A stretch of DNA of 64,000 bases from a phage: sequence record PV419677.1; one strand, written 5' to 3'. Shown one piece after another: positions 54,748-62,055 of the stretch. A program made the position numbers and the translations under genes. How positions within the stretch are numbered: the first letter of the stretch is position 1; the number at the start of each line of letters is the position of its first letter. Below the pieces are notes generated by a model, which saw only the letters and a list, made by a program, of their open reading frames with translations, was not told the origin of the DNA and did no database searches.

Positions 54748-57054
<2,307 letters not shown>

Positions 57055-57083: not shown

Positions 57084-59063
57084 ATGGCTTTATTATCCCC
57101 GGGCATTGAGCTCAAAGAAACAACGGTACAAAGCACTGTTGTTCGTAACGCGACGGGTCGTGCGGCGCTGGTTGGTAAATTCCAGTGGGGCCCAGCTTTC
57201 CAGGTAACTCAAATTACAAACGAAGTTGAACTTGTTGATTTGTTTGGTGGTCCGAATAATGAAACAGCAGATTACTTTATGAGTGGGATGAACTTCCTGC
57301 AATATGGTAATGACCTCCGTACTGTACGTGTTGTTAACCGTGACGAAGCTAAAAACGCATCCCCTATTGCTGGCAATATTGAAACTACCATCGTAACTGC
57401 TGGTACAAACTATGCTGTCGGTGATGTTATTCAGGTTAAACACAACCAGACTGTTGTTGAACCGGCTGGCCGTGTGACCAAGGTCGACGTTGATGGTAAA
57501 ATTCTGGCAATCTTTATTCCTACAAATAAGATTATTGCATTTGCCAAAACTATTAACCAGTATCCTAATTTAGGTAGTGCATGGACCGCGGAAGTTACAA
57601 CCACTTCTTCTGGTGTATCTGGTACCATCACCGTTGGGAAAATTGTTACCGATTCTGGCATTCTGTTGACTGAAGCAGAAAACAGTGAAGAAGCAATTAC
57701 TTCTCTGGAATTCCAGGCATCACTAGCAAAATATGCAATGCCAGGTGTTGTTGCTCTTTATCCAGGTGAAATCGGTTCGACTTTGGAAGTTGAAATCGTA
57801 TCTAAAGCTGACTTTGAAAAAGGCGCAGCTGCAAATCTGAATATTTTCCCAGGCGGCGGAACGCGTGCTTCTGTGGCTCGTGCCGTGTTTAACTATGGCC
57901 CGCAGTCTGAAAACCAATATGCAATTATCGTTCGCCGCGATGGCGCAATCGTCGAAAACGTTGTTTTGTCTACCAAACAGGGCGAAAAAGATGTTTACGG
58001 TAATAACATTTACTTGGATGACTACTTTGCAAAAGGTACTTCCAACTACATCTATGCAACATCTCGCAACTGGCCTGCAGGCTTCAGTGGTATCATCAAT
58101 CTGTCTGGTGGTATTTCTGCAAACGATAAGATTACCGCTGGTGATTTGATGCAAGGTTGGGACCTGTTTGCTGACCGTGAAGCACTGCATATTAACCTGC
58201 TTATCGCTGGTGCTGTTGCCGGTGAAGGTGATGCGACTGCTTCCACTGTTCAGAAACACGTGGTTTCTATTGCTGACGAACGTCAGGATTGTCTGGCATT
58301 TATTTCCCCGCCGAAAGGTCTGTTGGTTAACGTTCCTCTGACCCGTGCAGTGGATAACCTGATTGACTGGCGTACAGGTGCTGGCGCATTTGATACTGAT
58401 AACATGAATATCAGCACGACTTATGCAGCGATTGATGGCAACTATAAATATCAGTATGATAAATATAATGACGTTAACCGTTGGGTTCCTCTGGCAGCTG
58501 ATATGGCTGGTCTGTGTGCTCGTACTGATGATGTTTCTCAGCCTTGGATGTCTCCGGCTGGTTATAACCGCGGTCAGATTCTGAACGTTCTGAAATTGGC
58601 TGTTGAACCACGTCAGACCCAACGTGACCGCATGTATCAAGAAGCTATCAACCCGGTTGTTGGTTTCGCAGGTGGTGATGGTTTTGTTCTGTATGGTGAT
58701 AAGACTGCAACTAAAGTTCCATCTCCGATGGACCATATTAACGTTCGTCGTCTTACGAATATGCTGAAGAAAAATATCGGTGATGCATCCAAATATAAAC
58801 TGTTTGAGCTTAACGATAACTTCACTCGTGCATCATTCCGTATGGAAACTTCTCAATACTTGGATGGTATTCGTGCACTTGGTGGCATTTATGAAGGTCG
58901 TGTAGTTTGTGATACTACTAACAACACCCCGGCGGTTATAGACCGAAATGAGTTTGTTGCTAGCATATATTTTAAACCAGCAAGGTCGATAAATTTTATC
59001 ACGCTTAATTTCGTAGCAACAAGCACGGGCGCTGATTTTGATGAGTTGATTGGAGCGAACTAA
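57084..59063 (+). CDS. 18: tail sheath protein gp18
   Basis: 659 aa, same as T4 gp18; synteny. Confidence 0.9.
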   Translation: MALLSPGIELKETTVQSTVVRNATGRAALVGKFQWGPAFQVTQITNEVELVDLFGGPNNETADYFMSGMNFLQYGNDLRTVRVVNRDEAKNASPIAGNIETTIVTAGTNYAVGDVIQVKHNQTVVEPAGRVTKVDVDGKILAIFIPTNKIIAFAKTINQYPNLGSAWTAEVTTTSSGVSGTITVGKIVTDSGILLTEAENSEEAITSLEFQASLAKYAMPGVVALYPGEIGSTLEVEIVSKADFEKGAAANLNIFPGGGTRASVARAVFNYGPQSENQYAIIVRRDGAIVENVVLSTKQGEKDVYGNNIYLDDYFAKGTSNYIYATSRNWPAGFSGIINLSGGISANDKITAGDLMQGWDLFADREALHINLLIAGAVAGEGDATASTVQKHVVSIADERQDCLAFISPPKGLLVNVPLTRAVDNLIDWRTGAGAFDTDNMNISTTYAAIDGNYKYQYDKYNDVNRWVPLAADMAGLCARTDDVSQPWMSPAGYNRGQILNVLKLAVEPRQTQRDRMYQEAINPVVGFAGGDGFVLYGDKTATKVPSPMDHINVRRLTNMLKKNIGDASKYKLFELNDNFTRASFRMETSQYLDGIRALGGIYEGRVVCDTTNNTPAVIDRNEFVASIYFKPARSINFITLNFVATSTGADFDELIGAN

Positions 59064-59105
59064 GACTTTACTTCTGATTTAACTTGGGTTATAATGCGCG
59101 TATAA

Positions 59106-59113
59106 TATAAATA
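59106..59113 (+). promoter_or_regulatory. late promoter octamer TATAAATA inside GCGCG/CGCGC inverted repeat
   Basis: gcgcgTATAATATAAATAcgcgc, 18 bp 5' of the HNH ORF. Confidence 0.45.
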
Positions 59114-59130
59114 CGCGCAAGGATTTACAA

Positions 59131-59736
59131 GTGATTATTTCTAAATTTGTTGAAGTTCAAATACGAAATCATGCAAAGTGGTGGAGCGAATACTTAGGTA
59201 AAACTCTAACATATCATGATGTGATTTCTGTACCAGTTGAACAAATGCCAGATAATAGTAATAAAAAGATTGAATGTTCCTGTGATGAATGTGGTGCACA
59301 TTTTGAACGTGGTATTCAGTTGCTTCGGCGCGTTGATAAACATTTATGTAAGACCTGCGCAAGAAAAGATGTGGGTGCAAAAGTTTCTGTAAAAATGGCT
59401 GGAGTATCAAGATTTGATTTACGAGGAGAAAACCACCCTAGATGGAAAGGTAATCGCAAAGAATATGATTTGTATGCCCAGCGCATTCATGCATTAACTC
59501 GTGGAAAACATCTAAAGAATATTTGGTCAACATGGGAAAATGCAGATAAGATAGGAAAATGTGGAGAAGAAGGTGCATATCAGCTTGACCATAAAGTTTC
59601 TATTGCATATGGATTTTATAATCATATACCAGAGACAGTTATCGCTTCGCTCAACAATTTAGAAATAGTCACTTGGGAATCTAATAGGTCCAAAGGAAAA
59701 TCAAATAGTATTGACTTATGGGATATATTATCCTGA
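59131..59736 (+). CDS. HNH endonuclease with N-terminal zinc finger
   Basis: YQLDHKVSIAYGF..NLEIVTWESNRSKG HNH motif; CSCDECG..CKTCARK; GTG start; inserted between genes 18 and 19. Confidence 0.65.
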   Translation: MIISKFVEVQIRNHAKWWSEYLGKTLTYHDVISVPVEQMPDNSNKKIECSCDECGAHFERGIQLLRRVDKHLCKTCARKDVGAKVSVKMAGVSRFDLRGENHPRWKGNRKEYDLYAQRIHALTRGKHLKNIWSTWENADKIGKCGEEGAYQLDHKVSIAYGFYNHIPETVIASLNNLEIVTWESNRSKGKSNSIDLWDILS

Positions 59737-59871
59737 CAGTAAATGTAATTAAGCAGTAAACCGTAGAACCATTATACAATGCTATAAATAAAAGCATATC
59801 ATCGGTTCTACGGACTCCTCAGAGCTCCTCCAGCGACCTAAATACATTTATTGATGAATCATATTACCTAG

Positions 59872-59879
59872 TATAAATA
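59872..59879 (+). promoter_or_regulatory. late promoter octamer TATAAATA for gene 19
   Basis: exact octamer 52 bp 5' of the gene 19 ATG. Confidence 0.55.
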
Positions 59880-59931
59880 CATGCATCAGGGACGCGTACG
59901 CGCGACCTGTGTCTATAAAGAGGATTCCTTA

Positions 59932-60423
59932 ATGGAACTTACTGATATATCCAGAGCCTTCGAATCCGGCGACTTTGCTCGTCCTAACCTGTTCGAAGTC
60001 GAAATCCCATTCCTGGGTAAAAACTTTGCTTTCCATTGTAAAGCAGCCCCGATGCCAGCAGGCATTGTAGAAAAAGTTCCTGTCGGTTACATGAACCGTA
60101 AAATCAACGTTGCGGGCGACCGTACATTTGATGACTGGACTATTACGATTTATAACGACGATGCTCATAAAGTTCGTCAAGCAATTGTTGATTGGCAAAA
60201 CCTGTGTCACGGTATGACTAACGAAATCACCGGTGCAGCTCCTGCTGATTATAAGAAAACCGCTACTGTCCGCCAGTTCCATCGTGATGGCAAGACCGTT
60301 ACGAAAGAAGTTGTTATTACCGGCATGTGGCCAACCAACGTTGGGGAAGTCCAGATGGATTGGGATTCGAACAACGAAATTGAAACGTTCGAAGCAACGT
60401 TCGCAATTGACTGGTGGGAATAA
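59932..60423 (+). CDS. 19: tail tube protein gp19
   Basis: from MELTD: ISRAFESGDFARPNLFEVEI..GIVEKVPVGYMNRKINVAGDRTFDDWT matches T4 gp19 as recalled. Confidence 0.9.
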   Translation: MELTDISRAFESGDFARPNLFEVEIPFLGKNFAFHCKAAPMPAGIVEKVPVGYMNRKINVAGDRTFDDWTITIYNDDAHKVRQAIVDWQNLCHGMTNEITGAAPADYKKTATVRQFHRDGKTVTKEVVITGMWPTNVGEVQMDWDSNNEIETFEATFAIDWWE

Positions 60424-60424
60424 G

Positions 60425-60432
60425 TATAAATA
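60425..60432 (+). promoter_or_regulatory. late promoter octamer TATAAATA for gene 20
   Basis: exact octamer 48 bp 5' of the gene 20 ATG, followed by GAGGC-TTCG-GCCTC hairpin. Confidence 0.5.
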
Positions 60433-60480
60433 AAGTTATTATGAGGCTTCGGCCTCATTTCCCAAACTTCGGAGACTCTA

Positions 60481-62055
60481 ATGGCAGGTTTTAACACAAT
60501 ACTAAATTTTCTTAAGCCTTGGGCTAAAGAAGATGAACAAGAATATAAGCAACAAGAAAAAAATAATTTAGAGTCAATGACCGGGCCGAAGTTTGACGAT
60601 GGGGCTCGCGAAATTGAGTCACAAGAACAAAACGTCCCGTATAATGCATTGATGCAACAGATGTTCGGGAGTAATGAACCTGAAGTAAAAAATACCAGGG
60701 AATTAATTGACACCTACCGCAACTTACTAAATAATTATGAAGTTGATAACGCGGTGCAAGAAATTGTGTCTGATGCTATCGTTTTTGAAGACGGTAAAGA
60801 TGTTGTAGCTCTTAACCTTGATGCTACCGAATTTAGTCAGAAAATTAAAGACCGAATCCTTGAAGAATTTTTGGAAGTTAATAACCTCCTTAATTTCGAG
60901 CGTAAAGGTTCTGACCATTTTAAACGTTGGTATGTGGATTCTCGAATTTTCTTCCACAAAATTATCAACCCAGCAAAACTTAAAGATGGAGTTCAAGAAC
61001 TTCGTCGCCTTGACCCAAGACAAATCCAGTTCATTCGTGAAATCGTTACACGCATGGAAAATGGTACAAAAATTGTCGACGGTTACAGAGAATATTTTGT
61101 ATACGATACTGGCCATGAAAGTTATTGTGCCGATGGTCGTATATATGAAGCAGGTACTAAAATAAAAATTCCTCGTGCGGCAATTGTATATGCACATTCT
61201 GGATTACTTGATTGCTGTGGTAAGAATATCATCGGATACTTGCAACGAGCAATTAAACCTGCAAACCAATTAAAACTATTAGAAGATGCTTTAGTCATTT
61301 ATCGTATAACTCGTGCCCCAGACCGCCGAGTCTTTTATATCGATACCGGGAATATGCCGTCTCGTAAAGCAGCAGCACATATGCAACATATTATGAACAC
61401 GATGAAAAACCGTGTCGTATATGATGCAACCACGGGTAAAATCAAAAACCAACAGCACAACATGTCTATGACAGAAGACTATTGGTTGCAACGTCGTGAT
61501 GGTAAAGCTGTCACCGAAGTTGATACTCTTCCGGGAGCGCAAGGCATGTCGGATATGGACGATGTTCGCTGGTTTAAGAACAACCTATATCAGGCTCTCC
61601 GAATTCCATTATCTCGTATCCCTAATGACCAAAACAGCGGCGTTATGTTTGATGCGGGCGCGACAATTACTCGCGATGAATTGAATTTCTCTAAATGGAT
61701 TAGGCAGCTACAGAATAAATTTGAAGAAGTTTTCCTCGACCCGCTTAAAACCAACCTTATCCTGAAAAAAATTATTTCAGAAGAGGAATGGGAAAAGGAA
61801 CTAAATAATATTAAAGTTACGTTCAACCGTGATAGCTATTTCACCGAAATGAAAGACGCAGAAATCATGGAACGCAGAATCAATATGCTAACGATGGCTG
61901 AACCGTTTATCGGTAAATATATTTCGCATCAAACGGCTATGAAGGACTTCCTCCAGATGTCTGATGAAGAAATTAATCAAGAAGCTAAGCAAATTGAATT
62001 GGAGTCCAAAGAGGCTCGTTTCCAAAACCCTGAAGAAGAAGAAGAGGATTTCTAA
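60481..62055 (+). CDS. 20: portal protein gp20
   Basis: 524 aa, same as T4 gp20; synteny. Confidence 0.9.

Follow-up and report, generated by a model that had tools for sequence, protein, structure and literature searches.

A putative free-standing HNH homing endonuclease gene of the gp19.1 family at the tail sheath-tail tube junction of a Gaprivervirus

Genes 18 and 19 of phage T4, the genes for the tail sheath and the tail tube, are separated by a gap of 116 nucleotides (nt) with no open reading frame (ORF) inside. In the stretch of phage DNA analysed here, 64,000 nt of sequence record PV419677.1 (hereafter the window), the same gap holds an ORF of 201 amino acids (aa), and the question arises what this gene codes for and how it came to lie in the middle of a tail operon. 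A first-pass annotation of the window had described it as an HNH endonuclease gene inserted between two genes that are adjacent in T4. As an observation this description proved accurate in every detail that can be checked, the adjacency in T4 included, apart from the label 'unusual'. The phage is a Gaprivervirus, a T4-like coliphage of the VR7/SP18 kind, and we consider it probable that the ORF codes for a free-standing HNH homing endonuclease of the gp19.1 family, still active or active until recently. Four features frame the locus.

57084-59063, plus strand: tail sheath gene gp18 (match to the PHROG tail sheath family at 1.8e-142; annotated as gp18 in VR7).
59119-59123, plus strand: Shine-Dalgarno sequence AAGGA, as read from the sequence, 7 nt ahead of the GTG codon and adjoining the base of a hairpin.
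59131-59736, plus strand: gp19.1-family ORF, a putative free-standing HNH homing endonuclease gene (201 aa, GTG start, match to PHROG 5104 at 2.8e-75).
59932-60423, plus strand: tail tube gene gp19 (match to the PHROG tail tube family at 2.6e-65; the start agrees with annotated relatives).

The ORF call and the PHROG matches of both flanks thus bear out a 201-aa reading frame with a GTG start between sheath and tube. The GTG at 59131 is the earliest possible start 3' of the preceding stop codon, and it is credible as a start because the N-terminus (M/V)IISK is kept among homologues and CAAGTGATT recurs in Tequatrovirus and Klebsiella phages (three genera).

The most fitting reading of the protein is that of an HNH-type nuclease which carries a zinc finger at its N-terminus. 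Its two parts map as follows.

59281-59358, plus strand: treble-clef-like zinc-finger core C51-x2-C54 ... C73-x2-C76, within an N-terminal module of residues 1 to ~90.
59578-59694, plus strand: HNH (beta-beta-alpha-metal) core Y150-K188, with D153, H154, N176 and N185.

The Cys finger and the HNH motif noticed at the two ends of the protein both stand up in an alignment of 27 full-length homologues, where C51, C54, C73 and C76 are all invariant and so is the block YQLDH...NL...W..N..K. Fingers of the DUF4379 type consist of two CxxC pairs in a treble clef; the Pfam model of this treble-clef zinc finger (PF14311) gives sub-threshold matches to 9 of the 27 members and likewise a sub-threshold match to the window protein, and by profile and structure the N-terminal module resembles the zinc fingers of mitoribosomal mS66. 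In an HNH active site a general-base His, preceded by Asp or His, ends the first strand, followed by a structural Asn and by a metal-ligand Asn or His on the helix, a pattern to which D153-H154, N176 and N185 conform. These four are the sole invariant columns among 44 diverse C-terminal domains and are invariant in the full-length homologues too, which is not what would be expected of a purely structural remnant. In the AlphaFold model they sit on a beta-beta-alpha element, with a predicted local distance difference test score (pLDDT) of 86.9 for the full length and 94.4 for the C-terminal domain. The best structural matches of the models are HNH nucleases, although these matches are weak; a Foldseek search against the PDB gave nothing significant (best E-value 0.12), though its top matches were Cas9 HNH domains. 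On the profile level, PHROG models named 'endonuclease VII' match 21 of the 44 C-terminal domains and models named 'HNH endonuclease' match 7 (1e-6 to 1e-3), and the C-terminal domain of the window protein itself matches phrog_1035 at 7e-4. The Pfam families HNH, HNH_4 and GH-E were reached below threshold only, by 2-4 of the 44 relatives, and phmmer and profile searches of the PDB gave no significant chain match, only zinc fingers or, on account of the NLQ.L..N motif, spurious leucine-rich repeats. The N-terminal module is also found fused to other annotated homing or HNH endonuclease bodies (P0164, phrog_3339 and phrog_559; phrog_12131). Three distant relatives (P0124, P0146 and P0159) carry Pfam DUF7487 at the N-terminus instead of the zinc-finger module.

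Presence of the gene is polymorphic among close relatives. In a megablast search with 58500-60500 the phages VR7, RZ, DK-13 and TH57 match over the full length at 92.6-93.5% identity, and many other Gapriverviruses align with the ends only. The cassette was found in four sequenced phages (6 records), while more than 20 close relatives are empty; most other Gaprivervirus records listed show the short empty-site span (record spans of 2001 vs 1337 bp). A locus filled in every relative, with no empty allele, was the outcome that the first-pass annotation had named as speaking against an insertion, and the more than 20 empty sites are the opposite of it. Together with the junction alignment and the T4 gap, the record spans show that the gene is inserted by comparison with T4 and with most Gapriverviruses. 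The alignment comprised five filled alleles (the window, VR7, RZ, DK-13 and TH57), six empty ones (EAWsc9, P8, P479, SP18, VR20 and VR25) and the Dhakavirus IME08 as outgroup, and together with a sliding comparison it delimits three segments.

59064-~59726, plus strand: inserted cassette of ~663 bp, absent from empty-site Gapriverviruses.
59727-59850, plus strand: haplotype of the right flank that goes with the cassette, a diverged homologue of the intergenic sequence of empty sites.
58932-59982, plus strand: recombinant, co-conversion-like tract of ~1.05 kb, which reaches from ~130 nt before the end of gp18 across the cassette to ~50 nt into gp19.

In all filled alleles the left edge lies directly 3' of the gp18 TAA. 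The right edge falls at a common TTATC near 59726, so that empty sites, too, contain the sequence which the final codons of the ORF overlap. Beyond it, the right flank (59727-59850) occurs as one haplotype in 5/5 filled alleles and as the other in 6/6 empty alleles. The polymorphic unit had been placed at 59064-59736; its cassette stands, with a right edge near 59726, but its extent does not, as the linked flank haplotype runs on to 59850. Comparison of the junction with insert-free relatives, which had been put forward as a way to define insertion and cleavage sites, delivered the former but not the latter. Within the flank a patch of ~38 nt (59814-59851) is unalignable between the filled and empty classes, and identity resumes from ~59852; the patch could be an immunity-conferring change or part of the mobile unit. 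In the Tequatroviruses PST and RB3 the cassettes also follow directly after the stop codon of gene 18, where 8 nt of T4 sequence are replaced. The empty junctions of Gaprivervirus and T4 show no likeness to each other past the gp18 coding end. A search of IMG/VR for further junctions with an 18-mer from a native hairpin of the intergenic region gave five matches, three of them chance hits in unrelated contigs.

The nearest relative of the window by its backbone is an empty-site phage, EAWsc9. In 100-nt sliding windows the two are 99-100% identical in the 500 nt on each side of the tract and 74-94% identical within 58932-59982; substitutions cluster inside the tract and the next one beyond it is at 60714. 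This is the footprint expected of homing with co-conversion, and ordinary phage recombination could also yield it. The history of the nuclease gene disagrees with that of its flanking genes. Between VR7 and VR26 the nuclease proteins are 34% identical, as against 93.5% for gp18 and 99.4% for gp19, and between PST and RB3 the corresponding values are 56% for the nuclease and 99% for both flanking proteins. Alleles exchange N-terminal types on a constant C-terminus (PST vs RB3; DCP80 vs the window): DCP80 has another N-terminal module joined to the window-type C-terminus. The ratio of nonsynonymous to synonymous substitution rates (dN/dS) is 0.04-0.22 among alleles, i.e. the gene is under purifying selection. 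Codons ~75-125 (59353-59504, the linker between finger and HNH domain) show dS values of 1.4-2.8 against VR7 and RZ, compared to 0.1-0.4 elsewhere in the ORF; the ORF is therefore itself a mosaic, with this segment derived from a more distant allele.

Outside the genus, too, the family keeps to the same place. In all 11 annotated phages inspected (PST, RB3, Roth19, Thanatos-2, phiM7, Acj61, HMGUkp2, X20, VR7, VR26 and DCP80) the gene is bounded by the sheath gene on one side and by the tube gene, or the next tail gene, on the other, and the gap is filled in phages of Tequatrovirus, Klebsiella, Serratia, Acinetobacter, Shewanella and Sinorhizobium as well as in environmental T4-like contigs. 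Among related loci in IMG/VR 26 of 70 are in the sheath-tube gap, a count that becomes 17 of 25 for loci spanning both domains (match start before query residue 50); some of the viruses with the gene in the gap have no more than 42-56% sheath identity with the window. At least three very different alleles exist within the genus Gaprivervirus. A second, strongly divergent type of allele (227 aa, 33% identity) fills this gap in VR26 (locus L003, 2065-2957), HMGUkp2 (L026) and X20 (L027), where it is located 3 nt ahead of gp19. In VR26 a copy of the native late-promoter region lies upstream of this allele, so the one intergenic gap has at least two points of insertion. The C-terminal nuclease domain alone adjoins nrdA in the jumbo Klebsiella phage phiKp_21 (L028, 1832-2803) and is found within ~700 nt of the large-terminase gene in eight environmental contigs (L066-L071 and L076-L077). 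Genes for nrdA and the large terminase are classic homing targets, and from these neighborhoods it follows that other conserved genes also serve as a home for the nuclease module.

The arrangement is thus far from unusual, as the first-pass annotation had called it: the family is present in 238 phage records, is annotated as gp19.1 and uses the same gap in many genera. An exhaustive profile search gave 5,106 clusters at E <= 0.001, many of which have only the C-terminal domain in common. PHROG 5104 is labeled 'unknown function', and the GenBank annotation of VR7, RZ and DK-13 reads 'gp19.1 hypothetical protein'. The window protein is 87% identical to gp19.1 of VR7, 58% (tblastn) to the Tequatrovirus PST type, and 45% (tblastn) or 51% (global alignment) to the RB3 type; the best database protein is 89% identical and none exceeds this value. 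The window allele is accordingly new, while the gene is already known in GenBank as gp19.1 and common, and T-even phages are well known for elements of this kind. We found no study of the gp19.1 family in the open-access literature (PMC and bioRxiv), a search which could miss a study in a subscription journal. A 2010 survey of homing endonuclease genes in T4-related genomes has no entry for RB3 in its 'other HNH' column; RB3 carries a member of the gp19.1 family.

The region upstream of the GTG codon and the intergenic sequence up to gp19 are rich in candidate regulatory elements.

59067-59106, plus strand: two overlapping sigma-70-like promoter matches, TTTACT-17-TATAAT and TTAACT-16-TATAAT, each at 10/12 positions.
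59095-59119, plus strand: 9-bp GC-rich hairpin or inverted repeat with arms TGCGCGTAT (59095-59103) and ATACGCGCA (59111-59119) and a 7-nt loop.
59106-59113, plus strand: T4-type late promoter octamer TATAAATA, an exact match 17 nt ahead of the GTG and a putative promoter.
59761-59813, plus strand: hairpin of the native intergenic region, CCGTAGAACC / GGTTCTACGG, whose loop contains a second TATAAATA (59783-59790); found in filled as well as empty alleles.
59872-59879, plus strand: proximal late promoter octamer of gp19, an exact TATAAATA, the same in filled and empty alleles.
59893-59903, plus strand: GC-rich palindrome CGCGTACGCGC in the gp19 leader; it and the two arms of the cassette hairpin have CGCGTA / TACGCGC in common.

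T4-type late promoters have TATAAATA at about -10 and the transcript starts 6-7 nt downstream of it. The octamer occurs in 15 copies in the window compared to 6.2 expected from shuffles, for which reason we regard it as a real signal class in this genome. That a consensus late octamer is embedded in a GC-rich inverted repeat, as had been noted before, was confirmed: TATAAATA at 59106-59113 overlaps the loop and the 3' arm of the 9-bp hairpin. As RNA the hairpin is predicted to fold with -18.6 kcal/mol (z = -2.7), a stability equalled by 3 of 200 shuffles; all five filled alleles and DCP80 have the same stem, which hence shows no covariation. Inverted repeats with a late promoter inside are no peculiarity of the cassette, since the native hairpin at 59761-59813 is present in both allele classes. 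Gene 18 is itself a late gene, so that late timing would not need a private promoter; the private late promoter proposed for the nuclease gene is plausible, not required. The count of sigma-70-like matches in the region is not above chance. DCP80 keeps this element as TTTACA-17-TATAAT, at least as well conserved as the late octamer. Sigma-70-like promoters in the middle of a late operon hint at expression of the nuclease early or by the host polymerase.

The layout of a promoter inside a hairpin is a known theme, described for T4 homing endonucleases: hairpin-embedded late promoters control translation of I-TevI, I-TevII, I-TevIII, segB and mobE of Aeh1, and in seg43(25) the hairpin abuts the ribosome binding site and does not sequester it (review by Edgell, Gibb and Belfort, PMC2988022). 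On the sequence level, the heptamer TACGCGC occurs at 59112 and 59897 only and CGCGTA three times in all in the window, where CGCG is densest in the kilobase from 59 to 60. An operator/target-site pair like that of I-TevI could be made up of the hairpin arms GCGCGTA / TACGCGC and the palindrome CGCGTACGCGC, unless the shared motifs are a coincidence.

From these elements a course of events can be proposed for the gp19.1-family protein as a homing endonuclease. The treble-clef-like zinc finger probably supplies DNA recognition and the D-H-N-N HNH domain is probably the part that nicks or cuts the DNA, with a single metal ion bound. When a cassette-bearing phage meets an empty-junction phage in a co-infection, the enzyme would cut at or near the empty sheath-tube junction. 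Its site would most likely extend over the gp18 stop codon into the intergenic sequence next to it and be disrupted by the insertion itself. Recombinational repair templated on the cassette-bearing genome would then copy the cassette and some flank into the recipient. At the level of expression, abundant read-through gp18 mRNA may form the GC-rich hairpin against the ribosome binding site, by which translation could be damped, while transcripts begun inside the hairpin, either from the TATAAATA late promoter or from the overlapping sigma-70-like promoter, could not form it and would be translated.

Several results weigh against this reading. Regarding the hairpin, the Shine-Dalgarno sequence starts at the last base of the stem and is unpaired with the hairpin, and the GUG is covered solely by a weak outer stem. 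Regarding the promoter, the late octamer of DCP80 is imperfect (AATAAATA) and the Tequatrovirus cassettes have no TATAAATA upstream. The comparison of filled and empty junctions yields no candidate target site that could be named, and the gp18 3' end is unlinked to the cassette (RZ and DK-13 are filled, yet have the gp18 end of empty phages), so that a target wholly inside gp18 is unlikely. Neither Pfam nor NCBIfam has a curated HNH model that recognizes the window protein at threshold, the matches obtained being weak ones to zinc fingers, and a profile search of PDB sequences found no HNH. Furthermore, T4-like phages recombine very actively, and a 1-kb mosaic patch is possible without a nuclease. 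Smaller clusters of substitutions against EAWsc9 are indeed present inside gp18 (57500-58220, 94-98% identity per 100 nt), from which it follows that recombinational mosaicism also occurs without an adjacent endonuclease gene.

Such gp18 patches fit an explanation in which the ORF is an old, vertically inherited accessory gene of the tail module that was lost repeatedly, the ~1-kb patch being the product of ordinary homologous recombination; the protein could then be a DNA-binding or nuclease factor for the phage's own use, e.g. against competitors or host DNA. The occupation of the same gap in extremely divergent T4-like viruses, the strong purifying selection (the dN/dS range given above) and a right flank that consists of two stable haplotypes and not of recent scars all agree with it. 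We nevertheless hold it to be unlikely, as the identity of the nuclease is out of step with that of its flanks in both the VR7/VR26 and the PST/RB3 pair, at least three very different alleles coexist in one genus, T4 and most members of the genus lack the gene at no apparent cost, the backbone nearest to the window is that of an empty-site phage, and the nuclease module is found elsewhere beside nrdA and terminase genes. A catalytically inert zinc-finger protein that keeps the HNH fold and binds DNA or RNA, as a regulator of its own gene or of gp19 at the palindromes 59095-59119 and 59893-59903, would agree with the failure of curated HNH models, with the CGCGTA / TACGCGC sequences common to the hairpin arms and the gp19-leader palindrome (TACGCGC being found nowhere else in the window) and with the fact that I-TevI also represses its own late promoter (PMC2988022). 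This we regard as very improbable: the HNH catalytic four are the only fully invariant positions in the 44 diverse relatives, and a repressor role is compatible with nuclease activity, as in I-TevI.

In HK97-like cos phages an HNH gene adjoins the terminase genes, and an HNH partner of terminase in DNA packaging was considered as well. The sheath gene separates the ORF from gp17, and T4 and most Gapriverviruses do without the gene; T4-type phages package by the headful with gp16 and gp17 alone. In view of the natural empty-site phages and the T4 packaging mode we rejected this candidate, which is hardly credible. The homing endonuclease reading can also be carried further, to a gp19.1 family that would be an unnamed, very large and ancient lineage of homing endonucleases tracking the sheath-tube junction across the T4-like superfamily, with the hairpin as a target-mimicking operator and the enzyme as an autorepressor or tail-tube modulator in the manner of I-TevI; in this extended form we think it quite unlikely.

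As a putative free-standing homing endonuclease gene the ORF has its closest counterparts in the HNH genes of T-even phages (T4 MobA-E and MobE of Aeh1). Like these it is small and free-standing, is set between conserved essential genes in an intergenic gap, carries an HNH-type active site, is patchy among close relatives and is presumably transcribed with the neighboring phage genes. A hairpin combined with a late promoter close to the ribosome binding site has been described for mobE of Aeh1 too (PMC2988022). The active site differs from that of the T4 Mob proteins, being D-H...N...N here and H-H...N...H there, and so does the zinc-finger DNA-binding module; for MobE cleavage and mobility have experimental support, whereas for the gp19.1 family both are predicted. 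Membership in the T4 Mob family was rejected on the basis of hhalign comparisons with the 44-sequence profile, in which MobE and MobB scored a probability below 1%; MobC reached 20.8%, for the HNH motif alone and in register. T4 endonuclease VII (gp49) was discarded as a relative, as it gave no alignment. The combination of a DNA-binding part with an HNH catalytic part is shared with I-TevIII (nrdB intron of RB3), where the former is likewise a zinc finger, and with I-HmuI of SPO1, although these two are intron-encoded and gp19.1 is free-standing. The Asp-His/Asn/Asn active-site style of D153-H154, N176 and N185 is presumably that of the HNH nicking enzyme I-HmuI and of the Cas9 HNH domain, a likeness taken from the motif and not from an alignment. 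The upstream region recalls seg43(25) of Aeromonas phage 25, in which a stable hairpin with a late promoter lies just upstream of the ribosome binding site and abuts an unpaired Shine-Dalgarno sequence (PMC2988022); seg43(25) and I-TevI are GIY-YIG enzymes, however, and in the window a sigma-70-like promoter overlaps the hairpin in addition. The gp19.1 genes of T6, VR7 and RB3 (PHROG 5104) belong to the same family at the same locus, and the window allele is set apart from them by its distinct central segment (codons ~75-125).

If the gene does code for an active homing endonuclease, the window and EAWsc9 would provide a clean natural system, a near-isogenic pair of which one member lacks the cassette. 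At least three divergent alleles would then compete for one site in a single genus, and phages of hosts as far apart as E. coli and Sinorhizobium, along with environmental T4-like viruses, would have the same site filled. Such a system would lend itself to the study of nuclease-target co-evolution, of the shuffling of DNA-binding and catalytic modules and of the tolerance of a selfish gene in a highly expressed structural operon. This would not be a new kind of biology but a tidy natural system combined with a gain in annotation: the gp19.1 family is without curated annotation and mostly 'hypothetical' in phage genomes, and an HNH assignment would improve the annotation of therapeutic T4-like phages.

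Two further genes complete the setting of the locus.

55219-57051: large terminase gene, upstream of gp18.
60481-62055: portal gene gp20, downstream of gp19.

The mechanically called ORF of gp19 opens at ATG 59881; its real start is at 59932, according to the relatives and a GAGG Shine-Dalgarno sequence. In DCP80 (L004, PQ671644), a record of 140,978 bp, homology to gp19 is lost ~12 nt past the start codon, beyond which unrelated reverse-strand ORFs and a primase gene follow, pointing to a large deletion, a rearrangement or a misassembly.

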